A DNA stretch of 62,254 nucleotides, the filler included, from Rhizaria sp. SCN 62-66 (lineage: Eukaryota), in assembly GCA_001724265.1 (NCBI GenBank). It is 7 parts of 7 records of this genome, joined end to end, with 100 filler letters (N's around TTAATTAATTAA, not from the genome) between each part and the next. Parts side by side here need not be neighbours in the genome. Positions count along the whole stretch, not along the records: positions 8,140 to 23,217 come from MEDY01000594.1; positions 23,318 to 31,967 come from MEDY01000596.1; positions 32,068 to 39,882 come from MEDY01000598.1; positions 39,983 to 47,368 come from MEDY01000599.1; 3 more parts are not named here. The stretch is one strand, 5' to 3'. Shown here piece after piece: positions 19,400 through 47,469 of the stretch; the stretch's first letter is position 1; each line of letters opens with the position of its first letter. The notes below the pieces were generated by a model. It was not told where the DNA came from and did not search any database. It worked only from the letters and a program-made list of their open reading frames with translations. The position numbers and the translations under genes were made by a program.

Positions 19400-21494
19400 T
19401 TACGCCAGCGCGAGCCGAATGCGCTAGGCAGCAGCCGCGGCAGCCTTCCGGTCATTCGCACGTCCCGCATTGCTCGCGGCCTGGGTCTGAGCCTGAGCGG
19501 CGTCCAACGCAGCCGAGTGACCGTGGGCGGCAGGGTGACCGTGAGCGCGGCGCAGCGGGACGGCGCCGGGGGCGACGAGCGCGCGCCCACGGTCACTGGT
19601 GTCGTCATAGTAGTCGTACGTCGCCCCAGCAGGAGCGGCGCTCCCAGAGCTTGGGTGCGCGCCATTGTGAGTGCGGCCGACTCCGCTCTCGACATCGCCG
19701 TACTGGCCAGCGTGACCGTGGACAGCAGAGTGACCGTGAGCAGCGGAGTGACCGTGAGCAGCCCCGAGCGCCACACCAGCGCGCTGCTGATCTCGCTCGC
19801 GCCGGCGGCTCCGGCGCCGCTCGGCGTCACCATTATGACCGTTCTTATTACTGCCTGCGTGGTTGTGACTCTGGCTGTGGCCGTTGTGAAGGCCATTGTC
19901 GCTCTCGTCCTCGCCGTCGAGCTTGCCGCCGCCAGCGTTGATGAGCGCGATGCCGTTGTTGCCGTCGTGCTTGCCGCTGCTGAGGAAGGCGTCCTGCGCG
20001 ATGAACTGTACCGCGTTCAGGAACACGGGCCCCAGGAAGAGCACGAAGACAAGCTCGGCGCGCGGGTGCCCGTGGAACGCGCGGCTGATAGCCTGCGCGG
20101 GAACCGTGAGCCGGTCCGCGAAGATAATGAGCAGCGAGCCGCAGAAGAGGCGCGACGGGATCACGCAGACAAAGACCCACAGCAGCAGCTGCTTGACGAA
20201 CAGCGACACGACGGGCGGCCGCAGCAGCCGGCCCGTGACTGGGTCGAGGAGCTGCCCGTAGTTGCCGCTGTCGCCGCTGCCGCCCGCAAGCACGCGCGCC
20301 ATGAGCCGCAGCAGGAGGTAGGCGAAGAAGACGCCCAGGGTGATGTCGACCATGAAGACGAAGATGTACCACGAGCATGGCGACACGTCGATGGGGCTGC
20401 TGGCGCTGGCGCCGGCCGAGAGGGAGCCGTGGCCGCCAGAGGCGTGGATCGCAAAGAACAACGCGATGAAGTGCGCAGCGACCTAGGGAGAGAGAGATAA
20501 GAAAGGCGCAGTGATATCAAAGTGAGTGAGTGGAGTTACACTTCAGCGTAATAGAGTCTAATAACAAAGGACTCGCACAAAGTCAAGTATCTTGTGATAT
20601 AGTGCATATATTGTTACGAAGTACCTGTGCAGCGCAGTTTTTGGTTGCGTCCATGGCCCACACAACGAAGGGTCGCTGCGGGCGTTCCCACTGCCACTTG
20701 ATCACGAGCACAGAAAACGCCGCGAACCCGCCGAGCGACTGCACCCACCAGCCGAAGGAGTCGGTGAGCGTGCACGTGTCGCGCGGGGACACGCCGTCGT
20801 CCTCGTACGCCGCGCTGTCGTCGAAGTAGTTGAGCAGCGCGTGGAACAGCGAGTCGGGCGCGGGGCCGGCGCTAGGTCCCGTCACCGTCCCGCCGCCGCC
20901 GCCGCCGCCGCCGGTGGACTTGGTGTCGCCCGCGGCGCCGTTGGGGCCGACGAAGAGGTCCTTGGGGGTGACGATGTGAGCCGGGGTGAGCGGCGCGGAC
21001 GGGCGCGGGAGCTCCGTGACGGCTGCGAGCGGGCTGTTGTGGCCATCGATGACGAACTCGGACGACAGGTCGCCGTCGAGAGCCGCGGCCGTGGCGGGCA
21101 CGGACGGGAATGACGGGGCCAGCGCGCGCGCAGCGGTCGTGGTGCTCGCAGTCGCGGCCGCGGTCGCGGTCGTCGTGGTCGCCGAGTTGGAGGACGACAG
21201 GGCGAGCGCAGACGCACTGGTGGGAAATAGAACGAGGCAGAGGAAAAGGGCGACGATCATTGCGACAAAGGAGGCTGCGTGCTGTGATGCACGGCGGCCA
21301 CGCGGCAGAGTCAGTGTGGAGTGCCGCTGCAAAGCATCAGTAAGGGAGGACACAGACAATTTAGAAGCAGCAGTGGCGCTTCTGTGGGCAAACAGGGACA
21401 TGTCAAAAGCAGGTGCTGCAGTTGGGGGATCGTGGGTTGCAGCAGCACCGCCAAAGGACAAAGCCTTTAACGAGGAAATGCGCCGTAAAAACAT
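19400..21494 (-). CDS. STIMATE (TMEM110)-family membrane protein (intron 20483-20624; in-frame TAG at 19424-19426)
   Basis: CTLTDSFGWWVQ..LVIKWQWERPQRPFVVWAMDATK, PCSWY..VDITLGV, SGNYG..PP...KQL, ELVFVLFLGPVFLNAVQFIAQDAFL. Intron GTACTT...CCTAG restores AAQ|VAAHF. The start codon is uncertain. The end is TAA at 19400 if TAG is sense, otherwise 19424. Confidence 0.85.
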
Positions 21495-22161
21495 GTCTTC
21501 CGAACGCAACACTGGGTTTCGCGGCACCGACAAGGCAGGCGATGCGAGGAAGCGAGGGCAGATCAACGACGGGGGGCACAGGGCGATGACGTGGGGTCAA
21601 GGGAAGCAGAGGTGAGTCGAAGACCGAGTAATGAAAAAGTAAGATATGGCACCGCAAACTGACTGTGATCAGTAATAAAGAAATATATAACAAACCGGAT
21701 TAATACTTCAGCGCAATTATAACACTTTTTCCGAATTTGACGAAGGAACCGCTGAGAACTGCTCGCTTGCAATTTCCTGCAGAGCTCATGTTGGCGATGA
21801 CGACTGGATGGGTCGGATCGATGCAAACGGGCGGGACGCCGAGTTGGCTGACGATCGACTGGAACGAACGTTTCACTCGATCTGCGAAGTTTAGCCGCGG
21901 GGCAAGGCACCGAGCGACGGTTCAGTCTTCCGAGCGATGGGCGGCGTTCTGCAGAGATTGCGGATGGATACTGTGATTCGTAACGAATATTCTAAGAGAT
22001 GTGTTGTATATGTTCGTGCATTCTGCTACATTTAATAGACTTAAGTTATTTCTAAAGCGCGTTTTAGTGCGGTCCTATGGCAGAAATACGCACACTAATT
22101 CTCACCCGTCGCCTCTTAACGCTCTCTCTGCGCACTTTCGTACTTTTAGACCGTCAACACC

Positions 22162-23217
22162 ATGTCTGACATTGAGGAGGGTTCCTTCCTTTTCACTTCC
22201 GAGTCCGTCAACGAGGGCCACCCCGGTACGTCATTGTTTTCGCTCTTCACGATAACCTCACGCTGCAACTCAACCCACTTTGCGGCCACTCCAACGACGG
22301 TCAGTGAATCTCGCTCGTCGACGACCCGAAACCGCGTCCGCTCTTCGTGTCGCCAGCCCCAATCCTCTGTAGGTTCAATGCATATAATGCTTTTATAACA
22401 AAAACTAACCGTATATCTACCCTTTGCACTTGTTTTCTTCGCATTATCGCCTTTTATAGACAAGATCTGCGACCAGGTCTCCGATGCCGTCCTCGACGCC
22501 CTCCTTGCCCAGGACCCCCTGTCCAAGGTTGCGTGCGAGACCTGCACCAAGACCGGCATGGTCATGATCTTCGGCGAGGTTACCACCAAGGCCAACATCA
22601 ACTACGAGCAGGTCGTCCGTGACGCCGTCCTCAAGATCGGCTACGACGCCGCTGAGAAGGGCATCGACGGCAAGACGTGCAACGTCATTGTCAACATCGA
22701 GGAGCAGTCCCCCGACATTGCTCAGGGTGTCCACATCAACAAGGCCGACGATGACATCGGTGCCGGCGACCAGGGCCACATGTTCGGCTACGCCACTGAC
22801 GAGTCCGAGGAGATGATGCCCGTCACCCACGTCTGGGCCACCCAGCTCGGCGCCCGCCTCACTGAGGTCCGCAAGAACGGCACCCTCCCCTGGGTCCGCC
22901 CTGACGGCAAGACCCAGGTCTCCGTCATCTACAAGAACATCGATGGCGTCCCCGTGCCCCAGCGCGTCCACACCGTCGTCATCTCCACCCAGCACGACGA
23001 TGGCATCCCTATCGAGCAGATCCGCGAGCAGCTCCTCGAGGAGGTCGTCAAGAAGGTCATCCCCGCTAAGTTCCTCGACGACAAGACCATCTTCCACCTC
23101 AACCCCTCCGGTCGCTTTGTCATCGGTGGCCCCCACGGTGATGCCGGCCTCACTGGCCGCAAGATCATCATCGACACCTACGGTGGCTGGGGCGCCCACG
23201 GTGGCGGTGCCTTCTCC
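22162..23217 (+). CDS. MAT: S-adenosylmethionine synthetase (canonical MAT), 3' truncated by contig end (exons 22162-22225, 22460->23217)
   Basis: [76 protein letters not shown]. Intron GTACGT...TATAG. Confidence 0.97.
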
Positions 23218-23606: not shown

Positions 23607-25568
23607 TTAAAATTGACCAGATTGGATCTTAGGATAATAAAGCGTCTCGTGCCTGCGGTAATAGCTGCGCTGAAACCGGTTTAGACTTTTGAAAAATGCA
23701 AGGTCCTGTGGCGTCAGTTCAGGCGCAACTAAAAGAAGTCCGTCAACGTCGATACCCGCGTCCGACAACGGCGGCAGCTCGCCGTAGAGCCGCGCGCGCT
23801 GCAGCTCTTTGCTCTCCTACCCGTTAGTGTTAGGCCGGTAGTGCATGCTGTCGGCGCCAAGATTGGGCATCGGCGCGTACCGCGTAACTGTGGCGTTGAG
23901 GAAATCAATGCCGTCGCCCTCTGTGGTTAGGATTTTATTTGCGCCGTCGCTGACGTAAACAAGGAGACGCGCAGTATTTGCTTGCACCAGAGGGCCTTGG
24001 GCGCGCGCGCCAGGAGTCGAATGCTTCAACTGGCCATAGGCGCCGACAGCTGTCGGAATACGGTGGAAACCGACACCGCGTTGAATGCGTCCCTGAATGA
24101 TGTTGTCCTCGGCGCCCCAGCCCCAGATGTCGTTAGGAAAACCCTTAGACTTATCATCGACTCCGGACGCAAATACGCCACCAAAGTGGTGACCAGCCGG
24201 GATAAAACCTTTGTTCTCGCGCGCTGGCAGACCTGTGCAGTAGTGAACAGGCAGGCCGTCATCGGCGAGGTCGTACTTGTTGAGCAGCGAGATGGGAAAG
24301 ATGTCGACGTCATGCGCAACAAAGTAGTCATAGCCCCACTTGCGGGCCACGTGCGCAGCAGCGTTGAACAAAGCGCCCTTGTTGAACGCAACGTCGTAGT
24401 TTTCTTGTTCAATAACGAGCAATGCGTAGTCGCGACCTGGAACTTTGCCAATCTGACGCAAATGACGGTCCATACGCGTGATAAACAAGATCAGCTGTTC
24501 CGACCGTTCCTGCCTGAAGATAGTGATGTTAGTTGCCGGGTCAAAGACCTTCTTGCCAAACTGGTGCTCACGGAATGGAATCACGACAAGCATTTTCCCA
24601 CTTTTTCCCTGCGATGTAAGATTCTTATGCGCAGCGATGACTTCCGGTGCAAACGGGTTGAACCGTGTTGCAAACGCAGGCATCGTTATGTTCTTGAGAG
24701 TGAACTTAGTGTTGCGAGGGAAACGTGGCACCATGCGCGTCACCTTATGCAGAGCGTTCATTGCACGCTTGCCCTGAGGGTTGGTCGCCAACATCGCGGC
24801 GCTGGGCTTAAAACTCGGTGGTGACAGCGTGCCCGTGTACGGCACTGTAGGCAGCGCGCCATAGCGCCGGTGGGATACGCGTTTGGAGGTCGTTGTTGCA
24901 TTAGACGACTCTGTCAATGTTGTGTTGCCCGTTGACGCTGCTAGAGGAAAGATGGTAGCGGAGACTGGGCTGAAATTGGGAGAAAAGGCAGGAGCAACTC
25001 CATAAAGGGTGTTAACAGAGCTCGTCGTCTCGAAAGCCATCCGAGCAAACATGCGGCGCCCATGGTTGCTCGTACTCTCCCAATCCTTGCGATTTGAATT
25101 GGCATCGAAACTGTTGGTGAGATGCCCAGAGAGCGACTGTGGTGCGAAGGTGAAGCCTTCTGCGTCGGACATGCTATCATCCTCACGGACACTATTAGCG
25201 TCACCGTCAAAGTCAGCGCTATCAGCATCGTCGTCGTCGTTATCGGATGAGACAAGGTTGTCCTGGCTTCGTACAACAACGATTTCGTCGTCATCGAATG
25301 TTGTAATTTCCCGTTGGTCGTGATTAAAATCAGGCAGAGGGTTGCTGCTGTGTTGGGTGAGGTGAGCCTGCAAGACGGGTGCGCGCACTATATGGCGAGA
25401 GTGCAGCAAAGTCACACCTTGATAGTACATGTAAATGTAAATGAGGAGGTAGACGGCGACAACGACTCCGCGACTGCCCCACAACGACCGTAGCAGGTTG
25501 CGGAGTTCGTCGTCACCTGTGCTGTCGAAGTCGGCGTCGCGAAAGCCAAAGGTGCACTTTCGCCTCAT
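23607..25568 (-). CDS. GT7 (beta-1,4-galactosyltransferase-like) type II membrane glycosyltransferase; in-frame TAG at 23817-23819
   Basis: N-terminal TM segment (VVVAVYLLIYIYMYY). GT7 motifs VVIPFR, IEQ...FNKGALFN, YFVAHDVD, FGGV, GFPNDIWGWGAEDN. After the TAG the frame stays open for 69 more codons (ESKELQRARLYGELPP...QSGQF) to TAA at 23607. Confidence 0.85.
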
Positions 25569-26041
25569 GAAAGCGGAAAAGCACTCCGCGAGCGCAACCT
25601 AAACAAACCAGAACCAATCCGCGTGACAAACAAAAGAGAAGTGAAGAAGAGCTGGTGCGCCACTGCATTTTGATTTGGCGGATTGTGGGTCAAGAACAGA
25701 GAGATTCGGCACATGGCAAGAAAATCAATTAAATTAACCACAGATATACGTGAAATGCACAAGACAACTGCGGCCGGCATCGACAATGAATGAAAGTGAC
25801 AACGCGCGATAAGCAAAGACAGATGAGCGGAACGAAGTAGACTAACAGGATTACTCCTTCTTCAAGCGCATCCTCACTTCGCCAACTGGTCACATTTTCG
25901 GATGTGGTTGTTTGGGGATATTCTCTTCGTTATATCGTTGTTGTTCTGGGCAATTTGAGCTTTTAATGCTATACTATCCTAACATTTCGTATAATTGTTT
26001 CACAACTACTCGTTTCGTAAGGCAGCAGTGACGTTCTAAAC

Positions 26042-29000
26042 ATGTCCCAGGCGTCATGGGACAATGCACCTGCCGATCTCGAACAACCGCACCGCATACG
26101 TGGCCGAATGGCACTCTTCTTTTTCTGGGGTGCTATTCTGCTTGGTGTGGGGTTTGTTCACAACTTTTTCCTGCAGAGGCAAATCTTCTTGACGAGATTT
26201 TCGCTTTTCTCCGACTCGACCATCCACAACAATCAAACAGTTGACAACGCTGAGAGTGCCGACGGTGATGCAGCTGTATCATTTCATCCTGATGCTAAGA
26301 CAGGGATAAATATTGTTTCTCCTTTTCCTGGTAGTATGCCTGTATCTGCGCGCGACTTCGGCGCCACATCTCTTTTCGTGCCTGATAAAGTTGCCTCACA
26401 ACTCTCACTGTCGCCGTTTCTCGACGTATCGTGTCCACTCTGCTTCACTTCTTCCACTGCACTGAACCCTAATGTTGCAGATGCACTTGCCGCGACATGT
26501 CCACTACCTACCCCTGTTCCAGCACATACCACGCCCATTGACCCGCCGCTGCTTTGGCATACTCACAACGGCGTGTCGCGCCGTCTCCTGCCGCTCTCAC
26601 CCCAAAACGCACATTTGCCGCTTGACCCCGGTGTGTGTCGGCAGTGCTTTGTCCCATATGCGCCACCGACTGCCGCGGCGACTGTGGGCGCTGGTAGTGC
26701 CGAGGCTGTGTTGGAAACATACAACATGTGCCGTGTCCGTGCAAGCCAAGGCCTTGCTCACAATCATAATTTTGGCTAGAGCGAATATTTTTTGTCTCCC
26801 AGTGACGACAAATTGAAGCGTACAGACTCCGATGTTGATCATAATGATGATACCGATGACACCCTTGATGCTGATCTTGACATTGAGCCAGGTGATGAGA
26901 ACAGTGGCGGAGTCAGTAACGGTGAGAAGCTCTCGGGCTGGGTTTCACTCGACGGCTCACGGTACCCTGTATCTGCGTGCGTCGAACCCATGGACTACGT
27001 GTTCCTTTGGGTCAACGGTTCAGACCCCGTTGTTTCTGCTGCGCGTGCGCGAGTTCTTGAGCAGGCGAAGCAAGCTGCTGACAATGCACGCGCAACAAAT
27101 GAGTAGAGCGAGAGTGTGCCACCCCCGAATGACAATGCTGATGCGGCGGCAGCGTCCATGTTGAACGATGACATTAACGCACGCAAGGCCGGTGACAGTG
27201 CCAACAATGCTTCTGAAGATGTACCTCGAGCACCCGTGGCTCCTCCATCCGGGTTTGTCGAGAGCAAATTCTCAACTGGTGAGCAGCGCTTTCGTGATTT
27301 AAACGAGTTGAAATATGCGATGCGCAGCGTCTACGCATACGCGCCCTGGGTGCGCCGCCTTTATCTTGTGACATCTGGCGAGCATCCTGTGTGGCTAAAC
27401 ACGTCACACCCACTCGTACGGCTTGTGCGTCACGAGGATATTGTTTACAATCCGGCTGTTAACGCGCCCGCATTCTCGTCCAATATGATTGAGACCGGTC
27501 TCCACCGCATCCCCGGGCTCTCTGACAATTTTATATACTCTAATGATGACTTCTTAATCACTAAACCTGTGCCTCAGTCTGCCTTCTGGTCACCTGAACA
27601 TGGAACTCGGTTGGAGCCTTCTTATCGTTATGGGTCACTCGCCAGCAAGATAACGTTAATTGGTGACGGGCTTTGTCATCCGGCGTGTATGGGTGAGTTG
27701 ATGCAGTATGATCTTGGCGATTGTGAGCGGAACTATTTGCGGGCACCTGCTGCTTGGGAACTTTATGATATGCTGCTTGTGCTTTCGCAGCAGATGTACT
27801 TGCGAGCTCCTTCAGTTGATGTGAAAAAACTGCCAAGTTACGAGCCACTGCCGGAGCGAGTCCGTGTTAATATCACAGCAATCAAAAATTTCAGCAAAGC
27901 ATTAACTAAAAAGACTAAGGATGATGGTTCTATTGCGAATAGATCATTCACGATGACTCTGGACGGGAAAACTCATGGCTACGTCACGCTTGGTTTGTAT
28001 CAACAGAACATCACATTTGGTCCAACTGATCACACAGCGTTTGTCGCGTACAACAAGCTGTCGCGTCGCCAGCAACGCATGAGCAAACGATCGCCGCCGA
28101 CTTTGTTTGCGCCGACTTATGGTGCGCGCTCTTTTTTTAGCAGTGAGAAAAGCAAAGATCCCACTGACATCTTTTCACCGCTCATGCACCCTGTGCTCGC
28201 CCGCGTTGCGCTTACTGGCAGCCACCTATACGCACATGCCTCTTTGCTCAACGAGTCTGTCTCGATTGCAGAACTCATCATCACGACGCCTTCGGCCGCT
28301 TCAGAGCCCGCGTACTGCGCGCCTGGCTGCCCCGCGTCGTGGGCTGGCGACGGCGTCTGCGACAGCACATGCGACGTCGAGAGCTGCGGCTGGGACCGTG
28401 GCGACTGTGTGCTCTCGCCTACTGCTGCTGGCGCTGCGATTGCGGAGATTGTAGCTGTTTCTGCTGACCGAACCGCGCGCGGATATATTTCAGCTAGCGT
28501 TGATGCCGCTCGTGCTGAGCAGCACTCGCGCGTCAAACGGCTAATGCTCAAGCAGTTGCGCGTGTCTCAGCTTGCTACCGCATTGTTAGAAGACATTGCG
28601 CGCTCTAATGTTGCTGTGTGGTCTCTACGTAGTGCTGCAACCGTGCATAGAACACCTTCTGTAAGTGAATCGCCGGTTCAACCCAACGATGACAAAGAGG
28701 CTACAATACTTATTAGTGATAAGGCGCCTGGCTTGGACGCAAAGGATTACCCTAACGATGTGTCAGCTTTCTATGTCACTGCAATGCCCATTCAAGACTC
28801 TGCTCATCCGAATGTCACCAAAGATACTTGCTACCCAGCTGGCTTGTCGCTGCAGTTGGCACAGGAATGGGTCTCCGCAGTGCTCGCCGAGATGTACCAC
28901 AACAGGCCTCACGGACAGCGGTTTGACGCTGACGTTGACGCGCTACAACGTGGGGCCGGTGTTGCGGCTGCACAAGCTGCTGCGTCCGAGTATGCAAACG

Positions 29001-30445
29001 CATTGCGGAAGTTTCGTGACGACGAGAAAACGAATTTGAAATCTGGCAAGAGCACACACGGACGCGAGAGCCAGAGCGCGGCAGATGATGACATCAGGAA
29101 ATACGAATTCTATCCTAATCTCACGACAATCAAAGCGCACCGCGCTGTTCGTCTGCAATTGGTATCGTCGCTGCAGTGGCCGACGGCCAACAACGCGCAT
29201 CCGTCTCAAGTTCTGTCCGTGCCTGTATCCGTCACGCCGGGTGCGTGGTGGTAGCAGATAGGCAACTTACCGAAACGTTTGGCATCCACGAGTTGGACTA
29301 CTTTTGTGCGTCGCACGATGGTTACGATGCGCAAAATTGTGGTCAACACGATCGCCACAACAATGCCTCATGTCCCAGTATCTCTTAATAAGCACGTTTA
29401 CGCGCGCATGCAGTACTTAGCGCGACATGAGTACTCCAGTACTTATTCAGCTCGTTTCCGCGGGAGAGGAGACATGCAATTCGCGCAGGCAATTGTGTCA
29501 TTTACTGCCGGTGCGCGCCATAGCTCTGTTGAGTCTGTAGCGGAGTCGCTGCTAAGTCATCACGACGCGGACTGTGATGGTACCGTGCGCGGCACTGAAG
29601 TGCGCTCACTACTTGTGGATCTGTTTACGACCCCAGCTGTGCCACCGGCCACAGCCCTCTGCATGCGCGAACAGCGCGCGCCGTGGGCTGTAACCGCGCC
29701 GCTGACGCGACCGCCGTGCAATTCAGAGCGCGAGGCTGCAGTCTCGCGCCGGATTGCCACGATGACAACCAAGAGCGAGGGCGACAGCAAGTTGCGGCCG
29801 TGGCACCTCCGGTGCGTTGCAAAGGGGGCAGTTCAAGGCAATGATACTGATGATGACGCAGTCTCTGCATGGCATGCGTCTGTTGCTTCCGCGCGCACAT
29901 TGCCAACGTCAACGATTCACTCTCCTGTGTTGATGACCGCACTGACACAAGAACCCCTCCTGAGTGAGCTATTGCGCGCGACACCATGGCGTGAATATGG
30001 TGCTGACTCGGCAAAGTCTACTGAAAAGCGTTCCTCAAACAACAAGGACCGTGGCACTGACGACGCAAACGATAGTGACGACGACTTGAGCAGCATCGAC
30101 TATGACGAAGACAGTCTTGTTATCACGCGTGCTGACCTACTGCAGTGGACTCTGAGTCGTGTTGCTCTCCAAGAAGTCCAACTTTTACACAGGCCTTTGT
30201 ACCAGAGGAACTTGAAGACAAAACAGGAGCCTTCAACATGGCGCTATGTTGCGCTTACAAACAAACTTTTGATAAATACTACTGAGCTAATGACGTCTAT
30301 CGCGCGCAATCTCGCGGAAAAGAAAAACAAATTGTTCACATGTATCAACGACGACATTTCAGATTTACTCCCTCCGGGTTTTGTAAGTAATGTGACAGAA
30401 GTTTTTGAGGCAAAGTTCGCGCGTAAAGCGCCGTGGGAACTGTGA
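26042..30445 (+). CDS. GNPTAB-like / Stealth-family GlcNAc-1-phosphotransferase, single frame with three in-frame TAG codons (26777, 27104, 29252)
   Basis: Four track ORFs share one frame and are separated only by TAG. In order they encode the TM anchor, Stealth CR1 (PMDYVFLWVNGSDP), CR2 (RFRDLNELKYAMRSV..APWVR..LVT..P.WL...FSSNMIE..LHRIPGLSDNFIYSNDDF), LNR repeats (CAPGCPASWAGDGVCDSTCDVESCGWDRGDC), CR3 (PHVP..LNK...RFR..DMQFA), an EF-hand-like DADCDG..TE and CR4 (FTCINDD...F..K.PWEL). Stop TGA. Confidence 0.92.
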
Positions 30446-32213: not shown

Positions 32214-32580
32214 ACAGTGCCGGTGTCTCATGGTTTTATAGAGTTTCATAAAACGTGTTGTAATGGAAATTGATCCAATGTCTCTTTATGTGCTCTTTTG
32301 TGGCCGTACGGTCGTAGTTAGGGGGAGAGTCGACAACCTCTTTCGATCGACGATCAGGTTCTTGAGCTAGTTAACTTGTAGACATGATTTCAAGACTTAC
32401 ATGGATAGCTCATCAACAATTGGACCACTTACCCTGTTTGCTGTTTCCTCTTGCAGCTTTTCTGGCATTTCATATTGTCAAACCCTCCATTCGAGCTTTT
32501 CGAGCATCGCTGCTCACCACAACGAACCTGCACATCTCATTCGGGCTCTCAAGTCCCTTACTCAGCCTCATTCCGTAAAC

Positions 32581-35500: not shown

Positions 35501-38500
35501 TTCGGCATCCATGGTTATTTGTGAGGTGTCTTACACAACATCAGAATCAATGCTACTCATTAACAGCGAATCTGACATAGCTTTAGCGTTCTATCCTTAC
35601 AGCACAGCAACAACGGTGGATATTGGTGGTAATTTTATCGATAGTATCACAATCATAATTATACCGCTTTCGCCCCAAGCAGCACGAGTTCCACTTTTTT
35701 TTTCCCCACGTGATCAACAACTCGTTCTAGGAAAGACACTTTCTGCGACTACCAACAATATGTATGCAACAGTAAATGCATCAATTGTAAACTATACTAC
35801 AATTCGCATCGACATGGACGAAATCCCGTCGTTCTTTGGGAGTGCCATATTCGTCACGGGGAGCGATGTTTTGTTTACTGATCAGAGTATGACTATGTAC
35901 GAACCATTCGGCTTTAGCGCTACGTATTTTCACATAGCTGCAGGATCATCCTCATTCATAGCAACTAGTGACACTCAGTTTGGTCCGTACGTAGCCGCCG
36001 AAGCGTATGACCCAACAAAGTTCACACTTACCGCGACCTCGGTTACTGCAACAGATATTTCCACAGCCCGCATACGAAGGTTGACATTCAATTTCGCTAC
36101 AGTTATGGGTGGTAATGGAGGTAGCAATATCAAGCTTCGCCTGAGCACAACCGGTTGTAATGTTGACTTTTCAATGGCAACTATCTCAGGTGCATCACTA
36201 GCATTAGCAGCGATCTCCAGTGGACTTATCTAGTTCAGTGTCCCTCAAGCGTGTACCAAGGGCAGCGCATGTGGTGCTATAATCAGCGTCGTTTTTGTCA
36301 ATGCTCCTGCAGGTGCAGTAAACTGGCCTCACACCATCTTAAAGTCATGCTTTTCAACACAGCTCTATTCCTCCAGTTCAGCTGTCGGAGAAACGGCGAA
36401 CGCAGATAGTGACGTGAAACTCTATGTCACTAGCGATGATCTGCCTATGTACACGATTGTTAGCGACACTAATCCTGTGCCTCCAACGCTTATGACGATG
36501 TCTCCTAGTACCAGTTATTCTTCGCGCTATGAAGGCTATTATGTTTCGAATCCGATCAACATCATCGGCGTTAACTTCGTTGGTCGCACGGACAAGTCAT
36601 ATACTCTCTCTGTTCATAGCTCGTGCATCAGTTGGTTAGAACTGCAAAATGACGCAGGTGTGCAAGTAACATCAACCACGTTTAACATGGACTTTACTGT
36701 CTATGACTTTACGGTTGTATCGACTTTCCGAATCCAGCTGCGCCAAAACAAACCAGCAACATTTCTTAGCATGTGCATTGTTCTCTCGTTGACATCGCCA
36801 ACAGCCGTTATTAACCCAGTCTCTACATCATATGCTAATCAACTATCATATTTACCATCGTTCTCAATTGGGCTTGTTGACACAAAATTAGTATCACTCT
36901 CAGAAGAAAAAGCAGTGCTCAGTGAGTTTTCACTCACATATGAGCTTAACATCATTCTCCCTAAGGATATTTCGTTATCCACGGGCATAGTCTTTGCTGC
37001 TACTCTTGACGATAACTGCTTTTGCCCAGTCCTGTCAGACGCTTTGCTTGTGACTTCTGACGCGACGCCTTACGGACAGAAGCAGCCCACTGTCGGGTCC
37101 AATTGCTCATTTTCAATTACTGAGGCACTAATTGAGGTTTACTGCAGCAGTTCAGTTCCGGAACTAAACTGGTTCTCGTTCAACCTTGTTTGCGCAAGTA
37201 TCTTTTCCGCAGAGACTCTTCACAAGTGCGTTCCTGATCTCGCGACCAAGTCCATTAAGATGTCTTTCGACGGCGGGGCAGCAGTTGATGCCTTATCCGA
37301 CTTTTACAACGCTGGGCCAGAGGTATTTCTTTCCGCGCGTTACATTCGCTGCCAAACCAACATCAACAGAGATTAAGAAATACTGTTCCATGGTTTCACT
37401 GAGCAATCGGACCGAGTGCCAGGTACTACTGAGCAAGGATGCCGCCAATACGTTTGTTATCGAGGACATTGCAGGAACAATCGCTAATAGCTACAATCTT
37501 TTCGGCAGCGGTGCTGTTGCAGTCTTGGTAACAGGCACAGTGAGGGTCACCGAGGTTTTGAAGCAATGGTACGCGACATCTGATGAGTATAGCGGCGACT
37601 ACTTCAGCTATTCAGTCACCGGCGCCAATCCAGTCGCGCTATACAGGACGATCCGATTCACGCCTATTGTCGGGTTAGTCGCGCTACATCCCGCCTATAC
37701 ATTGGTGACTACGTACACAGTTGAATTTGCTTCTACGTGCAGCAACATTATGATTGGTGATAGCTCAGTAGCAATTCTACCGGCTCGTGCTGCGCCTGGC
37801 ATCGGGCTCATGACCATCAACTCAACAAGCTTCACTATTTCAACAGGATCCAATCTCGGCGACTTTGCCGAGTTTAATGGCACCAACGCTGCGTTTGTAT
37901 ATCGCGTGGCATACGCACCATACCTGTCCACTGGTCTGCCCGCTCCGTGTTTTAAGGCTGGTGCGGGGGCATACATCCCAGGTGTTTCGCCAACGAGTAA
38001 TGTCGGGCCGTTCCCGACCGCTGGCCCGCTACAACCGTTATTTCTAATTGTGCCCGTGGGTGTTAGTGTAGAGTCAGATCAGCCCGAAGATACTGTCTAC
38101 AATCTTAGGCTGCTTATCATTCCACGCTACTCTATGCCAACGAGCATCTCAATTGTCATTACATATGATGAAGTCCGGTGTCCACTAAAGGGTGAAGGTT
38201 TGTTCTTCGGTGAATTTTCGTATATCTATGATGTAGCTACAAGTCGTGGCTCGTCGCCGTATACGAGTTGTTCAAAGTTCCCGACTGGCTCCAATCGTAG
38301 CTTTGGAGTAAAGTGCTTGGGTAGCTTTGATACAGCAACACACGGAGACATTTTTTTAACCATCAGCGGCCTCGTTATTGCGCGCACGAGTACTCATTTT
38401 ACAAATAGGCTTGATGGCACGTGCTTCACTGCGTCCATTGAGCGTATGACCGCAGGGTACCCCGATGAAGACACACGCGCAATGACGGGGAGTTTTGTAA

Positions 38501-39882
38501 TACCGTCGTTCTTGAGTGTGCATCAGTCAACGGTATTTGACCATGATGCCAACAACAACACAGGGATATCGATGGCTGTGCTGTTGGGTGCGGCCCATTT
38601 CTCTCCTTTGAGCAGTTGTGAATTCGTGTTTGACTTCCCAAAAACACGTTTTGTTCCCACAGACGCGTGGATTAATCTTCAGAGAGCTATCGACAACACA
38701 CCGCTTCTGGTAATGCCGTCTGGTGGCGTAGTTGGGAGCGCGCTCAACTTGTCAGTGCTGGCACTGTCAGACGTGTGGTGCAATGTACACTCACCATCCC
38801 TTCTCGTTGACGGCTGCTGGTTTGAGTCAACAGGTACTGTGTCTACCACAGCGTATTTGCGCACCGACGTATTGTTTGATCACACAAACATCTGGGTTAA
38901 TAACACTGTGAACGGTGTCAACACAAACGCACTCGCGGGCTTTGTACCTACGCGCCAACTGCCGCTTGCGGCGCAGCGTCTGTCGGCTAGTTTGATATAC
39001 ACGGGCCTCGATTTAGATCCTGCCAGTCTTGGCAATGCAGGAATTACGCTTGTGCTGAGGTACATAACAACTTTTCTCACAACAGCCAAGCATATCATCA
39101 CGCTTCCAAGCACGTTGTCTTATTTTTCAACAAGTATGAGCGGCACTGGCTATGACTCATTTAGTTGCGCCAGTAATATCTGCACAGGCCAAGCGTCAGT
39201 TGACACGATATTTACAATCACAATCGCTGGGATTGTTGTATCGACCGCACCATACGAATTGTTGCGTGCTAACATTGCGATTTATGACGCGGTTACGGTT
39301 CCGGGCAACATTTCTCTTTCAATCGCCGCGTACGCGGCACCGGAGCTGCGCGCAATTGAAGGATATGAGCCTACAGACAGGTTGATTGCGTACAGAGCCG
39401 TCCAGTCTACCGTCTCCTTTTTGGGACGTATTTCTGGCCCTATGCCGCCATATAATGAAGATTACACCGTTAGCGTTACTGGCTCTGGCGGCAGCTTTAA
39501 TCTGACGTCGCGAGTATCACTCGCGTACACGCGCATCTTGATCTAGCCCACTGCAAATTTTAATGTCAAAATCGCGGTAGATTCGCCCCACCTGCTTGCC
39601 GGCGGGTCCCCTACGCTTAATAGCATTGCCGTTTTCCGGCCCGGCACGCCGACTTGTACGGTTCCAGTTGTCGCCAATGTTGCATCACTCGGGGATTGCT
39701 CAGGCTTTCCACAAGACACCATCGTCAACCTGGAGATTACCACAGGGCACACGCAGCTTCCCGTGCTCCCGGTTTGGATTGAAGTGCTGCTTGGCAGCGA
39801 TAAATTTGTGCGCTTCCCAATCAAGCTGCCAACGACTCCGCTCCCATTGACCATTTTGTCTGTGACAGAACCGGTTCCTGAA
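32581..39882 (+). CDS. Large secreted/surface protein, Ser/Thr- and Cys-containing, beta-rich, 3' truncated; five in-frame TAGs and two apparent frameshifts
   Basis: Signal-peptide-like MFRFALSWAVVVWFVLFTFVENAVVVA. ORFs link in frame across TAG at 34126, 34168, 34174, 36231 and 39544. Frame changes occur near 35310-35436 and 37320-37370. The frame is open to the contig end. No family recognised. Confidence 0.65.
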
Positions 39883-39983
39883 NNNNNNNNNNNNNNNNNN
39901 NNNNNNNNNNNNNNNNNNNNNNNNNNTTAATTAATTAANNNNNNNNNNNNNNNNNNNNNNNNNNNNNNNNNNNNNNNNNNNNG

Positions 39984-40190
39984 AAGCCCGCTTGCGAGTA
40001 CCAGGCCCCCGTCCCCCAGCAGCTCACCGCCCTCGGCTGCTGCCCCTGCAACCCCGCCAACGTCAAGGCCTCGATGATCTCTGCCTCCGAGTCCGTGACT
40101 TCCGAGAACCTCCCCTCGTTCGCCGAGGTGATGGCCTCCGTCAAGTACCAGGCCGCCAACGGCCAGGAGTGCTGCGCTTGCAAGGCGTAA
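39984..40190 (+). CDS. 3' fragment of a Cys-rich protein with strong codon bias
   Basis: KPACEYQAPVPQQLTALGCCPCNPANVKASMISASESVTSENLPSFAEVMASVKYQAANGQECCACKA*. Codons are almost all C/G-ending, as in the ribosomal protein genes. The TAA overlaps a possible GTAAGT donor. Confidence 0.6.
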   Translation, partial: KPACEYQAPVPQQLTALGCCPCNPANVKASMISASESVTSENLPSFAEVMASVKYQAANGQECCACKA

Positions 40191-40963
40191 GTTCTTAAAA
40201 CAATTTTTTTAAGGACGGCTGCTGACCTGGTAGGGTTGTGACCGCTGATGAGAGGGTTAGTGGTGCTGGTAGGAGGTTTTCATTCTGAACAACTCAACCA
40301 ACACGCACTCACGCCCCTGCCTCCTCCCTGTCCGCACCTTCACCAACACGCGCGCCATGTAGAATATATGCGGCGCGATCTGGACGACGCGGATAGAAGA
40401 CCAGCAAACTGAGTTTTGTTAGTTAGTTAGGTTCAACAACATAAAAGATGTGTGACTGTCTATGTCAAAAGCTCCTTATTTCCTGTTGGAGTTTTTTCCT
40501 ACTTGTCCCTGAATACACATCATAGATTGAAATATTATCATTCAATATACACTGCTATGACCATGATGTGTGTACTAGTCTAGGTGCAACGGAGCACGCA
40601 GGGCAACAGACTTGCGTATATTAATGTCCTGGGCGTTACATTAATTAATGGTGAACTGGCAGAGAAAATAACACATTATCCATTGATTCTTCATATATAT
40701 TCTATAACTCACAAAATTTAACCCCACAACATAGTTGTTGGCGACTCGTTGACACGGCTTTTTGTGAATTTCTGAGCCGTCCACAAACGGTTACCTCGCA
40801 CACAGCTGCTCATGATTTTGAATGAGGACATTAAGAAAACAGCCATGTTTCTCCATCCTGGCCGTAGTATAGCAGATTGCTTTTTGATTTTTATATAACA
40901 TGTAGTATTGAACTTATATCTTTATTATTCTCTTTCAATTCTGCGTTTGTAGACCACCGTCCT

Positions 40964-42376
40964 ATGTCTGATTCCGACTCTGAGCTCTTCGGCAACGACG
41001 ACGCTATCATTGAGCAGCGCAAGTCCCAGCTCTCTGCTATCGTTGCCCCCGCCGCCCGTGCCCCTAAGCCCTCTGCTGACGAGTTTCCCGTACGTCTTTG
41101 TATCAATTCTGCATCATGTTGTCTCATCATATATCCCTGCGTTTGATGCCTTCTCAATGCAACACTCACTTGTCACCTTCCCGAACCTTCTGTCACTCCC
41201 TTTACTCGGCGCTCTCAGGATGACGACGCCGCGTTCCGCGCCCAGTTCGACCGCGACCACGCTGCGTTTCACGACGGTATTACGACCGAGGTCCCGCTCT
41301 GGGGCTCGCGTGTGCCCGCCGGCATGGAGGACCATGCCAACTGGAAGGACCTGCCCGAGCAGGAGGTCGAGCAGGTCAAGCCCGACGCCTACGGGCCCGA
41401 ATTCGAGCGCATCTACACCGAGCGCCAGACGCTGCTCAACGCCAAGAAGGCGGTCGTACGTTAATTTTGTGGTATTTATCAAAACCTCGTCTCTTGACTT
41501 GTTTTGCTTTCTTGTTTACTCACACTTTATCTTATTTCGCTATTATCATACCATCACTGTTGTTAACCCTGCTACAGTCGATCGTGCTGCCCCAGGTCGC
41601 CGCGCTGGTGACCAACACGCAGAACCTGTCTACGGCGGCGGACGACGAGGCCAAGGCGCTTTATAAGAAGCTTATCGCCAAGAACCTCAAGACGCGCGCC
41701 GCGCTGCTGGCCGAGCTCCAGGGCTACGTCGACATGTACGCCGAGACCGAGTGGGGTACGTCGAAACTATCTTATAACATCCAAATAGGAAGTGTCGAAA
41801 GCATATGGTCAAATCATGCAAATTAAATTGTGCTCGTATCTTTATAATTTGGTTGCCTTCTCTTCAACTGGTGCCGATCAATGATGTCGAGCTAACTATG
41901 TTCCCTTCACTTCTCCCTTCACTTCCAATTCCTGCTTTGTCATTTTGATGTAGGTTCTGACCTCCAGAAGCTCCACGCTGTCGCATCGCAAGACTCCTAC
42001 CCTGATGACCAGCACCCTCGCGTACGTCGACACCAACATCCCTGACCTCAACTATTCCGACTTCTCGTGTGCATAGAGACATGTTCTATGATGAATGTCA
42101 TCGAGGTCGATGAAACTCATCTACTTCTTTAGCATTGATCTTGTAGCACTGGATTCAAGCCTGATTTAAATTATGACATTTGATGCTGCACAACCACACT
42201 TACCTGCTATGTCCCGCATTCCTTATCATGTATTTCTGTGACAATTGGTTCATTTAACATCATAGTTCGTGGAGCAGGCGAAGCGCTTCGTGCAGCGAGT
42301 GTTCCAGCGCCAGTACAAGATGATGCAGGAGATGAAGGCCGTCAAGCAGGCCTTCCTTAAGGCCAAGACCGCGTAA
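40964..42376 (+). CDS. Uncharacterised multi-exon helical protein (exons 40964-41089, 41219-41455, 41578-41755, 41954-42021, 42266-42376; possible upstream exon 40845-40863)
   Basis: Four GTACGT...YAG introns splice GC-rich exons into one frame (MSDSDSELFGND...EFP|DDDAAF...KAV|SIVLP...EWG SDLQ...HPR|FVEQAKRF...KAKTA*). Stop TAA. Confidence 0.8.
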
Positions 42377-42817
42377 GTCCATGTCATACGTATGACAGTG
42401 TTAACAACATATATCACACAGGTACAATAGTAGTTTAGTCAAGTCATGAACCCGCGGTAACGGATCGAATGCTCTCATTCTGAGACTGGATATCCGTACG
42501 TTGTTTTCAATTTTGCGCGGTAAAAGTAAGTAGAAGGTGGACTTCCGCTTATAAAATATGTGAAAACCCGGTTATAATTCTCAAAATACATAAACATAAC
42601 TCTGAACACGTCTGTTTATTTTAGCTATGTCTCCTTTGCTGACGTGTGTGCCGTTTGTGGCGCAGATCGGCCCTCGAAGAGACCGACAGACCAGGATCTC
42701 GTATCATCGCTTATCACATTCAGTCGATCGTCGAATAGCACCAGCGTTGAAGTATCTTATCAAATTGCACTTTGACTTTCTTTTCATTATTTGTAGTGGT
42801 GACGTCGAGGACCTCTA

Positions 42818-45800
42818 ATGCCGGGCTTCGTATCCACCCCTTCTCAACCCTACTCAGGGCAGGAGAAGGGGAGCTCAGGCTCTTCTCACGATGGCGCAGG
42901 CCAGCGTTGGGCTCCCAAGGCTTACTACGCCAATTCCACATTTGAGTCATATGATCCCTATGTATCCTCGACGACTAACGCAAAAGATGGCGTTTTGCCG
43001 TCGCAAATGCACTTTCATGACGCCCTCTTCTTCGACGCCACGGAAACCGTTGAAGGAGCACTCGCCAGCAGCGATGTGCCGTTCGTCGAGATCACTCAGC
43101 GTATCCGATTTGTTGCCGTCGTCGTCCGTGTAGCTTTGCTATGTACCATGGTACGCTTTTTGTCACGTCTTCTTTTCAAACTACGTTGCTTCAAAGTCAC
43201 TTGCTCTCTAACTTCTCACATCACTGTTGTGTCCTATTGCTCGCAACACTCTGCATCTCGTCTAGTTCCTGTCGCTGCCTTTGTTCTTCATTGCGTGGCG
43301 CCTGGCCTCGCACCGCGTCCCCGTGCTGCTGCTGATTGCGCTTGTACTCGCAGTCGTCGCCGGTGGCCTCGTCGTCCTCGCATGCACCGGCGTGCTAGGA
43401 ATGCAGCGTCTCATTGCGCTCGGCACGCCTAGCTCCGGCGCGCACTCGCACTCGCACAACTCTCGTGTCCGCTCCAGTTCCCTTGACGCGGTGAATCGAA
43501 TTTCTGCTCACGCGAGCACTCTTGTTGATAACCAACAGCACTCCCAGGAGAAGCTGCAGCAGCAGCAGCAGCAAGACAGTGGTAGCGCCAAGAGCAAGGC
43601 CGCCTCCAAGACGAAGACTCCCGCGGTGCCGAGCTACTTTGACGCCGCTGCGATGGACACCTTGAGAACCGGTGCAGCCAGTGGCAGCGACAGCGAAGTG
43701 CTTCACGTCTCGGTCACGCGCCCTCAACACAGTAACAACAACAACAACAACAACAACAATAACAACAACGGCACTGCGTCCGGACAGCGGAGCGGTGCTG
43801 GCCAGTACTACGACGCGTACGACCTGGAGAGTAGCGGCGCCGGCCCGCTCCTGCACGGCGACTCTTTCACCCCCGCGTCATCGCTCACCACCTCGCTGTC
43901 CCTGTCGTCCTCTTCGGCAGCAGCCCACGGTCACGCCGCGCCGGTGGGCGGGTACGGCTACTCCGCCGAGCTGCTGGATTATTACGACCCCGATGAGGAC
44001 GAGAGCATTCTCGGCGCGCTGAGCCCGCTACCAGTGCCGGTGCAGTCGAACTACAACGGCAGCGGTGCACACGGGCACACTGCGCACGGCCAACAGCAGC
44101 GGCAGCAGCAGCAGCAGCAGCAGCGGTCGCAGGCTGAGCTAGTCTAGCTGCAGCGCGTGAGCACCGGGGATGAGACTGCGGGCGACAAGAGCACGTCCGA
44201 CTACGGCACCGACTCCGAGGGCGGCGCACTCGTCACCGTGACCAGCTCCCGGCAGCAGGCTGGCCAGCAGGCGAACGGCGCCGGCAAAAGCTCTCTGAGC
44301 CACATCATCGCTGCCAGTCAGTACGACGTGGGCAACGGTACCGGCTTTGACAGCCTCGCCGACAGCAACAGCAGCTACGCGCGCAGCCGCCACTCGCGCA
44401 GCGGCAGCGGCGGCAAGGGTAAGCGCCGCAGCAAGAGCCGCCGCAGCGGCAGCAGCAGCGGCAGCGGCAAAGCTGCGGACCCGGCGACGGCGATCGCCCT
44501 GCTGACGACCTTCTTGACCTTTGCGGTGCCGGTCGCGGCCGTGCTGCTGCTGCTGTCAGGGCTGCTGCTGGCGTTTCCCGCGCACGCGTCAGCCTACGTG
44601 CACGTGCGGTGGCACGAGGCGCTGTCGATGCACGCTGCGTCCTCGGTCACGGCCTCAAGCTCCGCGCTGTCGGTGCTCGCGCCGGCCGCCTCCGCCCTCG
44701 TCCCCGCAGCCGCGCCCGCGGGCCTGGGCCCCACAGCCGCCGCCGCGACTGCCGCTGTCGCGCTGTCCGCGGGCGGCGGCATGCCCCGGTTCGGCGTCCC
44801 GCCCTCGCTGCGTCGCTCGCACCGCTTCGTCACCCTTGCGCTCACGGTCACCTCCACGGTCACGCTCCTCTCCGCGCTGCTCATCGGGCTCGCCGCGGTC
44901 CTGGCCGTGAAGCTGCTGCTGCCCGTTGCGCTGCCGCCCGTGCCCGCCTTCGCCACGGCGACACCCATCGCCGGCGTCGCCGCCTCGGTGCTCACGGTCG
45001 CGGGCGCCGTCCTCGACATCGCCAACGCGGACTGCGCCTACACCGCCGCTGTCGCCACCGCGCTCGCGCGCGCCAACGCCGCCAGACCCGCCGCGGCGGC
45101 GGCAGCCGCGGTGACGGCAGCCGCGGCGGCGGCGGGCGCAGCCACGGCAGCGAGCGCGGCCTCTCCGACGGGTGGTGCGAGTGCGAGCACCGGGCTCGAT
45201 GCGCTGTCCTTCTTCTGGGGCTCCAGCGAGCGCGTGTGTCTGCACGGGCCTGTGCTGAAGCTGACACCCGCGCTGCTGATGCTCGGCGGCGTGTGTCTGC
45301 TGCTGCTGGTGCTGCTTAACGTGCTCACGCTCAGCAAGGCGTTCAACCCGGGCAATCGCGATGGCGGCAACGGAAACCGCATTGCCGAGGTCCAGACAGT
45401 AAAGGGCAACGGTAACTCCGTGCGCTTGCCCGGCATTGCGGGTCACAGCGACAGCGAACATGGCGGCAACGGCAGCGCCGGGGGCAGCAACAGCAGCGTC
45501 AACAGCAACGGCGTGTTCATGCTCAAGGCCCGCACTCTGCCGTCGGTCTCTCTGTTCCTGTCGCAGGCGCGACGCGTGCTGTCTGTGCTCGTTGCCATCG
45601 CGCTGCCGCTGATGCTCATTTCGCTCCTGCGCGCCTCCGTTGGCCTGGAGCAACACCTGCTGCAGTCGCCCGCCGTCGCGCACGACATCTCCATCAAGGT
45701 CATGGGGGCGCATCTTTTGCACGCGCACGCGCACAGCCAGCGCCGCACTGCCGTCGGCGCCCATAGTGGCGAGGCGGGCGCTGCGCGCGGCGGGATGGGC

Positions 45801-46343
45801 CGCGGCCTGGGGCTGGACTCGGCGGCGTGGCTGGGGCCCGACGCGGCGACCGCGATGGGTCCGTTCGAGTCCGTCGCCGACGCCATCAACACTTGGCGCA
45901 AACACGTCACGGCCACGGCGACGGCCAAGCTCGCTGCGGACGGCGCTCTCGCCGACGCCGACGCGGTTGCCGACGCCGCCGTGGACGCGGACGAGTCGCC
46001 CGAGGCTCTCGCAGCGCGGCTGGGGCTCACGAGCGGACTCGCGACGCACACTGACGGCGACGGCGCCGGTGGTCCAAGCCATGACTCTAATGTTGCAGCT
46101 GTCGCCGCTGCGTCTAGCGCTGCTGGGTGGAGCCCCGAGCGGCACAATGTCACTGTGAAGCTGGGGCTCGCGCGCAAGGTGGCGCATGAGTTCGCGAAGA
46201 TTGTCCTCGTGGCCAAGGTCCATCTGACGGCGTTAATCGTGCTAGTCGCCGTGGTCGGCGCTGTGGCAGTGGGTTACGTCACGCTGGGCGCTAAGGCCGA
46301 GCAGATTATCGCGCTTACGGCCGGGGACTACGCTGCGCGGTGA
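42818..46343 (+). CDS. Uncharacterised multi-pass membrane protein with low-complexity loops (exons 42818-43150, 43266-46343; in-frame TAG at 44145)
   Basis: Intron 43151-43265 (GTACGC...TCTAG) gives LCTM|FLSLPLFF. ORFs 43281-44147 and 44157-46343 are one frame split only by TAG (AELV*LQRVS). Several hydrophobic helices. Stop TGA. Confidence 0.75.
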
Positions 46344-47368: not shown

Positions 47369-47469
47369 NNNNNNNNNNNNNNNNNNNNNNNNNNNNNNNN
47401 NNNNNNNNNNNNTTAATTAATTAANNNNNNNNNNNNNNNNNNNNNNNNNNNNNNNNNNNNNNNNNNNNC

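Follow-up and report, generated by a model that had tools for sequence, protein, structure and literature searches.

Is the codon TAG read as an amino acid, with TAA and TGA kept as stops, in the nuclear genes carried by a 62,254-nucleotide window of the genome assembly GCA_001724265.1? The question is raised by 11 in-frame TAG codons in this window, the whole stretch of DNA analysed here, which consists of seven contigs (contig 1, 1-8039; contig 2, 8140-23217; contig 3, 23318-31967; contig 4, 32068-39882; contig 5, 39983-47368; contig 6, 47469-54854; contig 7, 54955-62254) joined by spacers of the form N44-TTAATTAATTAA-N44. Our analysis indicated that UAG is likely translated as an amino acid and that UAA and UGA are the stops, in an organism that is most probably a rhizarian in or near the Sainouroidea. 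The sense reading of UAG was supported by homology over five of the TAGs, coding statistics, the lack of intron signals, independent assemblies, and an in-frame TAG in the orthologue of a relative, and the same evidence backed the core proposal of the first-pass annotation, in which TAG was a sense codon and TAA and TGA were stops. In-frame TAGs fall within exons of intact genes whose downstream parts are conserved; three contigs at least carry such TAGs, as does the relative's orthologue. The open reading frames (ORFs) that carry them in the window are as follows (GC3, GC content at third codon positions).

19400-20542, minus strand: last exon of a STIMATE-family gene (Pfam STIMATE), with TAG at 19424 and TAA at 19400.
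23607-25598, minus strand: glycosyltransferase family 7 (GT7, beta-4-galactosyltransferase-like) ORF with Pfam Glyco_transf_7N and 7C, TAG at 23817 and TAA at 23607.
26021-30445, plus strand: GNPTAB-like ORF of 1474 codons (Stealth CR1-CR4 and LNR), with TAGs at 26777, 27104 and 29252 and a TGA stop.
32371-37376, plus strand: G4 a+b, a giant Ser/Thr-rich ORF of no Pfam family, with TAGs at 34126, 34168, 34174 and 36231 and TAA at 37374.
37378-39882, plus strand: G4c, the third contig-4 ORF, which runs off the contig end, with an in-frame TAG at 39544.
43266-46343, plus strand: C5, a GC3-rich (0.83) ORF for a low-complexity membrane-like protein, with TAG at 44145 and a TGA stop.

A check of the sequence confirmed that all 11 codons annotated at first pass on four contigs (19424; 23817; 26777, 27104, 29252; 34126, 34168, 34174, 36231, 39544; 44145) were indeed TAG and in frame with a long ORF. 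Across the seven reading frames concerned, which hold 5,979 codons on four contigs, there were these 11 TAGs and no internal TAA or TGA, and the CLASP, ABCG and NIF ORFs (4,563 codons) contained no in-frame stop of any type, in agreement with the earlier statement that, frameshifts aside, no gene is interrupted by TAA or TGA. The TAGs had been assigned to five genes, which may be six since the contig-4 ORFs shift frame twice, and an open frame had been described after every TAG; at TAG 19424 this frame reaches a TAA after just 7 codons, and at TAG 23817 after 69. With random nonsense mutations and three equiprobable stops, the chance of finding 10 or 11 stops of the same type would be about (1/3)^10 by our own arithmetic; the pattern is well beyond chance and the observation is real. 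UAG was rare (about 0.18% of the codons in TAG-bearing genes, and 11 in about 12,400 codons examined), was missing from the ribosomal-protein tails (partial RPL27A and RPL40), and occupied positions that are poorly conserved or variable in homologues. A crude measure of the gain in ORF length per read-through codon showed a clear TAG-specific gain only on contigs 3 and 4 and was confounded by spurious GC-rich ORFs.

The GNPTAB-like gene on contig 3 provided the clearest context for these codons. Pfam recognised, in a single frame, Stealth CR1 (residues 322-337), CR2 (423-528), LNR (765-796), CR3 (1117-1161) and CR4 (1437-1474), and the three TAGs are placed upstream of CR1, in the interval between CR1 and CR2, and 5' of CR3. 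The Stealth regions CR2, CR3 and CR4 with their invariant residues are found in the same frame 3' of TAGs, and the conserved C-terminus (...APWEL) ends at the same point as that of the homologue P0002, with TGA as the stop. The three codons are listed below (LLR, log-likelihood ratio of the codon model described further on; X3 and X4, two DNA runs).

26777-26779, plus strand: in-frame TAG in the variable N-terminal part; flanks with LLR of 0.21 and 0.36 per codon; no intron candidate; kept in X3 and X4.
27104-27106, plus strand: in-frame TAG in the CR1-CR2 spacer, which is not present in homologues; coding LLR positive on both sides; no intron candidate.
29252-29254, plus strand: TAG in a conserved block (..GAWW-TAG-..TSWTTFVRRTMVTMRKIVVNT..), 39 codons 5' of Stealth CR3.

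At TAG 29252, L001 (a metagenome locus) and the two closest sequences of the protein collection, P0002 and P0003, aligned on both sides of the codon, with ..G(A/V)WW before it, T, A or V opposite it, and ..(S/D)(W/Y)..(F/Y)(V/L)(R/T)R(S/T).. after it, as far as NKHVYAR. The window flanks held in common with these three sequences were WW and TSWTTFVRR..NKHVYAR. The only intron-like candidate at this site was 138 nt long, and its removal would cost conserved residues. CR1 and CR2 share one frame across TAG 27104. In the first LNR-like repeat of the same gene (27600-27720), the window protein was without the first two cysteines (..RYGSLASKITLIGDGLCHP..), and the sequences P0003, P0004, P0005, P0006, L001 and L002 have C...C there.

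Homologues were also aligned through four TAGs on contig 4. An exhaustive HMMER search with the contig-4 protein (E 0.001, 1.84 billion representatives) returned 11 matches, of which at least two were the window's own fragments at 100% identity. P0138 aligned through the cluster of three TAGs (34126, 34168 and 34174), with the conserved block NVIITS......YTI, and P0140 (45% identity), P0135 and P0138 aligned through TAG 36231, with the block I-x-F-x-VP..C..GS.C. Thus five TAGs (29252; 34126, 34168, 34174; 36231) in two genes appear to be exonic, since they are inside blocks conserved on both sides in homologues, and each would represent one residue position within a conserved protein sequence. 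The homologue search with G4c returned only its own fragment and was uninformative on TAG 39544. The contig-4 proteins (32371-39882) belong to a family of very large Ser/Thr-rich proteins in which a C.CP / ..VC.. cysteine pattern recurs and which lack any Pfam domain; internal repeats in the contig-4 protein were too weak to be of use (one 25% match). The database copies of the window's own GNPTAB-like and G4 proteins (P0001, P0132, P0133 and P0143) are fragments that stop at a TAG, and gene callers set to the standard code split these TAG-bearing genes.

In addition to the window, a relative was found to carry its own TAG in the same gene. A metagenome scan recovered nine loci (L001-L009), all of relatives; the source organism itself was not among them. 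L001 and L002 are two alleles from one other metagenome, with 60% identity to the window across CR2, and both contain an in-frame TAG between CR2 and the first LNR repeat, at a site different from the TAG sites of the window. This TAG lies between FWSP..G and C..GC...GDG.C and appears to stand for one residue, since the FWSP-GDG spacing in L001/L002 is exactly 25 residues, as in P0003. Judged from these alignments, the sense use of UAG seems to extend past one assembly or one species.

The sequence beyond the TAGs also resembled coding sequence. The codon model was trained only on the parts of the ORFs that are independent of read-through, and the stretches that depend on read-through were then scored. 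Wherever more than 13 codons follow a TAG, the LLR per codon beyond it was 0.21-0.36 for contigs 3 and 4 and, for contig 5, 0.61-0.66. The stretches past the GT7 TAA and the GNPTAB TGA, scored with the contig-3 model in all three frames, reached at most +0.7. For GT7, the 69 codons after TAG 23817 had an LLR of +19.5, against -6.7 for the 68 codons past the final TAA. For G4c, 792 codons precede TAG 39544 and 112 follow it in the same frame, the latter with an LLR of +38.3. C5 extends over 293 and 731 codons in one frame around TAG 44145, with LLR per codon of 0.61 and 0.66. The 42 codons directly after TAG 29252 were neutral (-0.9), and homology covers that stretch. In all, five further TAGs beyond the five backed by homology had coding-like flanks in frame.

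Intron signals around the TAGs were compared with those of verified introns. Two of the reference introns are in the window.

22227-22459, plus strand: spliceosomal intron in the S-adenosylmethionine (SAM) synthetase gene, with 5' G|GTACGT and a 3' pyrimidine tract followed by AG.
60387-60536, plus strand: spliceosomal intron in the mitochondrial-carrier (PMP34-like) gene, with 5' G|GTACGT and 3' TTTTTCAG; it holds a non-coding TAG.

Both of these introns are certainly spliceosomal. L001 contains two further spliceosomal introns, and the four verified 5' sites (GTACGT twice, and GTTCGT and GTATGT in L001) gave the pattern GT[ATG][ACT]GT...pyrimidine-AG, which was searched in frame-preserving form. 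Candidate introns were no commoner around the TAGs (2 of 11) than at positions taken from the same ORFs as controls (119 of 498). The two candidates at TAGs would each remove residues conserved in homologues. No intron candidate was present at TAG 44145 of C5.

The TAGs of contig 3 recurred in independent data. Contig 3 was present almost whole in DNA runs of three studies tagged as bioreactor or wastewater metagenome, and a small part of it was present in a poly-A metatranscriptome of activated sludge and in another wastewater run; the source is a eukaryote assembled from bioreactor or wastewater metagenomes. X3 and X4 belong to two studies distinct from the one whose run contains contig 3 most completely. 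Their DNA contigs matched contig 3 with few differences and with none at the TAGs covered by the pieces listed (26777, 27104 and 29252 in X3; 26777 and 29252 in X4). TAG 27104 was retained in an X3 contig spanning 26140-28744. Sequencing error is therefore excluded at 26777, 27104 and 29252, since independent assemblies keep the TAG.

The terminators showed the complementary pattern in a small sample from one 62-kb window. Of 14 terminators checked, nine were TAA, five TGA and none TAG. TAA ends the MVD, RPL40, RPL27A, ABCG and NIF genes, the ORF closing at 17697 and contig-4 a+b, as well as STIMATE and GT7 if TAG is read through; TGA ends the thioredoxin (Trx)-like ORF, the 2846-5602 ORF, the GNPTAB-like gene, C5 and the carrier. 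STIMATE and GT7 could end at TAG; the first-pass annotation had likewise said that two of its TAA terminators presuppose read-through. Its total of 16 terminators (10 TAA and 6 TGA) was not reproduced, although none was TAG as claimed; RPL32, looked for in the window, was not located. Among the 12 unambiguous terminators, none was TAG, a result with a probability of about 0.03-0.07 by our own arithmetic under the standard code with a TAG share of 20-25%. By analogy with what is established for such codes, the decoding tRNA would have the anticodon CUA, able to pair with UAG and not UAA, and eRF1 would have lost or weakened its recognition of UAG.

Several observations count against the reading of UAG as a sense codon or against the rhizarian placement, and they are weighed here together with the alternatives. 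ARAGORN found no tRNA gene of any type in the window or in L001-L009, so that a tRNA(CUA), which had been suggested as a check at first pass, was not found in the window. No eRF1 was recognised among the ORFs scanned, the six-frame scan covering only part of the window, and no Rfam family, 18S included, was found at the gathering score in the window. TAG was missing from about 6,400 codons (CLASP, ABCG, NIF, MVD and two contig-1 ORFs). Moreover, TAG 19424 could just as well be a true stop, which in part also holds for TAG 23817, near the end of its ORF; the former, and less so the latter, is no evidence alone because of its position near the ORF end. With the high-GC3 codon model the negative controls were noisy, one intron reaching +18, and the evidence from C5 on contig 5 is therefore weaker than its score suggests. 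Among the RNA pieces of X5 and X6 listed for contig 3, none bridges a TAG and no joint has RNA support, and the RNA library may contain DNA. The X5 contigs were located at 25979-26279, 27138-27469 and 29463-29731, before, between and after the GNPTAB TAGs, so the mapping of RNA across the TAGs that had been envisaged at first pass yielded contigs nearby and says nothing on splicing.

We regard it as unlikely that the bin is mixed, with the TAG contigs 3 and 4 coming from a eukaryote other than that of contig 1, on which MVD is located; the code change would then be real and the rhizarian placement inapplicable. Such a mixture would account for the coding GC3 of 0.44-0.61 on contigs 3 and 4 vs 0.73-0.83 on contigs 2, 5, 6 and 7, and for the lack of a named relative for any contig-3 or contig-4 protein. 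However, contig 5, with a high GC3 like that of contigs 2, 6 and 7, has an in-frame TAG between strongly coding stretches, the non-coding GC is similar on all contigs (0.39-0.49 in 2-kb windows), and all seven contigs come from the window of one genome assembly. Two scans of genome contigs for misbinned contigs of the source organism returned nothing relevant.

It is also quite improbable that the code is ambiguous or partial, so that UAG is read through in some genes by a suppressor or near-cognate tRNA and stops translation elsewhere, for example at 19424. The positions of TAGs 19424 and 23817 close to their ORF ends would suit this explanation, and so would the rarity of UAG, its poorly conserved positions and its absence from housekeeping genes. 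It is opposed by the absence of TAG among the 12 unambiguous terminators and by the coding score of the 69 codons after TAG 23817, and inefficient read-through would come at a high cost where three TAGs are packed into 17 codons (34126-34174).

Decay of pseudogenes, or assembly error, with the TAGs as untranslated nonsense mutations, is very unlikely. It would fit the 1-nt frameshift near 35361 (35343-35361) in the contig-4 ORF, across which P0140 (residues 109 to 110) and P0138 are gapless and collinear, and the shift of frame of the CLASP-like ORF in a repeat. This frameshift could be a real lesion or decay, or an assembly error, and a second frame change on contig 4 (37168-37376) is either the end of the gene or a second frameshift. 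But all 11 codons are TAG with no TAA or TGA among them, the frames stay open past the TAGs, with coding-like sequence over hundreds of codons, the downstream catalytic Stealth regions are conserved, the contig-3 TAGs recur in assemblies of two other studies, and the relative carries its own in-frame TAG at another site. Least probable of all is the removal of the TAGs before translation, by editing or in short frame-preserving introns, which would agree with the presence of spliceosomal introns in this organism (one verified intron being open in frame and holding a TAG) and with RNA contigs that cover no TAG, but is contradicted by the five TAGs in blocks aligning residue for residue with homologues, by the two intron candidates of 11, no more frequent than in controls and both at odds with homology, and by flanks of coding composition.

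If UAG is a sense codon, as we favour, the residue it encodes can be approached from the homologous columns, which are given here by TAG site.

29252: T, A, V.
34126: I.
34168: E.
34174: S.
36231: T, V, S.
TAG site of L001: R, R, T, H, P, P.

Leu was found at none of the nine homologue observations at the five window sites. A likelihood calibrated on the same alignments, and based on nine non-independent observations at five variable columns, ranked T (+3.6 bits) above V, S, A, I and E, followed by Q (-3.2) and L (-4.0), so that L was 7.6 bits under the best candidate; W, C, H, Y, P, F, G and N were more than 13 bits under it, and the score of Ser was weak (+0.4 bits). From these columns, Leu and Gln would not be favoured as the UAG residue; Leu is not simply to be assumed, and Gln may still apply. 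An apparent Thr run at the nearest-homologue residues was dropped, as the L001 column contains R, R, T, H, P and P. Because the aligned columns faintly suggest small or beta-branched residues, Thr, Ser and Val are candidates, and we tentatively entertain the less probable idea that the residue encoded by UAG is neither Leu nor Gln, or that UAG is at an early low-usage stage of capture separate from the event in the sainouroid 'Rhizaria sp. exLh'. If true, either would add a new variant to the nuclear codes, or offer a rare view of a reassignment still under way, in free-living wastewater rhizarians.

The organism was placed with the diphosphomevalonate decarboxylase (MVD) gene.

6076-7326, minus strand: MVD, 416 codons, without TAG and with a TAA stop; taxonomic marker.

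MVD had a graded series of relatives at 60-88% identity, and its best named match was EP00461 Guttulinopsis vulgaris (65%), followed by Lapot gusevi (57%), Ploeotia (56%), Norrisiella (56%), Echinamoeba (53%), two species of Paulinella (52% and 51%) and Cyanophora (50%); Rhizaria made up five of the nine named or decoded matches. In a quick maximum-likelihood tree of 31 MVD sequences, the window fell in a clade of 11 rows with Guttulinopsis (Shimodaira-Hasegawa-like approximate likelihood ratio test, SH-aLRT, 93), nested in a clade of 17 rows (SH-aLRT 100) that contains all five named Rhizaria and one euglenid. This euglenid MVD, of Ploeotia vitrea, joins that of the chlorarachniophyte Norrisiella within the rhizarian clade (SH-aLRT 87), a position that may reflect transcriptome contamination, gene transfer or a single-gene artefact. 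The organism is thus probably a cercozoan rhizarian in or near the Sainouroidea (the Guttulinopsis clade), a placement that comes from one gene and a quick tree search, on contig 1, which has no TAG genes. An ESM Atlas search with MVD gave no useful taxonomy. The first-pass annotation had not identified the organism, and MVD now places it with Guttulinopsis vulgaris inside Rhizaria. The placement fits the wastewater habitat, since one study (PMC8827150) describes Rosculus and Guttulinopsis (Sainouroidea) as prominent in sewage works. Rosculus vilicus was considered as the source and rejected, its genome having 37.7% GC (PMC10770858), against mostly 45-72% in 2-kb windows here.

The gene content of the window, recognised by Pfam or motif unless stated otherwise, is summarised by contig.

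Contig 1: thioredoxin-domain ORF and MVD.
Contig 2: RPL40 tail, CLASP-like giant ORF, STIMATE-family gene and SAM synthetase.
Contig 3: GT7 galactosyltransferase-like gene and GNPTAB-like Stealth/LNR gene.
Contig 4: three very long ORFs of no Pfam family.
Contig 5: the long low-complexity ORF C5.
Contig 6: RPL27A tail and a full-length ABCG transporter.
Contig 7: NIF/CTD phosphatase and mitochondrial carrier (PMP34-like).

Six-frame Pfam scans of 39983-43300 and 46300-48500, which also took in 21560-22450 (plus strand only) and 53400-56700 (four of six frames), found nothing beyond the RPL27A C-terminus across all scanned regions. On contig 2, the CLASP-like ORF passes into an Ala/Glu-rich repeat read out of frame (..LRLLLPLRLLL..) at 16155-16497 and stops at a TGA, and a second frame in this region is open until the TAA at 17697; the change is probably a frame slip within the low-complexity repeat. 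The STIMATE-family gene has an apparent intron at 20500-20590, and an upstream ORF (20583-21596, minus strand) ends in a STIMATE-like N-terminal segment; its TGA is probably in the intron and not a terminator. In the GT7 gene, all four runs compared have a 6-base insertion (AAAAAA or AAAAAG) at 24152-24153 relative to the window, which is an in-frame length polymorphism. At the end of contig 3 (31121-31967), X3 and X4, the DNA runs, showed an increase in summed contig depth from about 5 to values of 30-700, and the depth also increased in the RNA run X5, with many variants and loose ends. No Rfam family matched this segment, which resembles a repeat present in many copies or a mobile element.

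Nuclear UAG-only reassignments are few, and the one closest to the window by placement is that of exLh, a sainouroid and the sister of G. vulgaris in published trees (Panek et al. 2017, PMC5304391). The first-pass annotation had taken the window as an independent case, which is doubtful because MVD places it in the clade of exLh, with its published UAG=Leu, so that this neighbourhood already has a UAG-only reassignment. The window is best taken as a further UAG-only case, very possibly of the same clade as exLh, and probably represents a second rhizarian lineage with UAG-only reassignment. Panek et al. raised the question of how far the exLh change extends among sainouroids and wished to see these surveyed; they expected a tRNA-Leu(CUA), for which they had no genome to search, and for eRF1 they draw attention to the GTS motif and to the position of human Leu69 (PMC5304391). 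Our full-text searches, with most subscription journals outside their coverage, turned up no later rhizarian UAG reassignment or code survey of sainouroids. The window contigs, L001/L002 and relatives in public assemblies indicate that UAG-reading members of this clade are present in wastewater, and their genomic DNA is already in public runs, which makes the tRNA, eRF1 and the extent of the change testable.

The window and exLh are alike in that UAG is the sole reassigned codon, UAA and UGA are stops, and the lineage is rhizarian (by MVD for the window), with G. vulgaris as the closest sequenced relative of exLh and the best named match of the window's MVD. In exLh, all 71 genes terminated at UAA (56) or UGA (15), and UAG was rarest in ribosomal-protein genes (PMC5304391), as it is absent from the partial RPL27A and RPL40 of the window. 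The two differ in usage, since exLh has 384 in-frame UAG codons in 71 conserved genes, often at conserved Leu positions and read as Leu (PMC5304391), whereas the 11 TAGs of the window are all at variable positions, with no Leu in the homologue observations. They differ in habitat too, which is an insect for exLh and wastewater or bioreactors for the organism of the window. Guttulinopsis vulgaris and Rosculus spp., the nearest named relatives judged by MVD and both frequent in sewage (PMC8827150), are thought to use the standard code; Panek et al. found an in-frame UAG in none of 147 G. vulgaris transcripts and describe a Rosculus gene with UAG as its stop (PMC5304391). Outside Rhizaria, McGowan et al. 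2024 (PMC11687900) list Iotanema (Gln), Scotinosphaera (Ser), Protocruzia (Gln) and phyllopharyngean ciliates (Leu, Gln) as UAG-only cases. Iotanema spirale (Fornicata), Protocruzia and the phyllopharyngean ciliates have reassigned UAG and kept UAA as a stop, like the window, in unrelated lineages (PMC5304391, PMC11687900), and the Gln of the Iotanema and Protocruzia type scores -3.2 here against +3.6 bits for the best residue. The green alga Scotinosphaera, with UAG=Ser (cited in PMC11687900), is UAG-only like the window and likewise belongs to an unrelated lineage.

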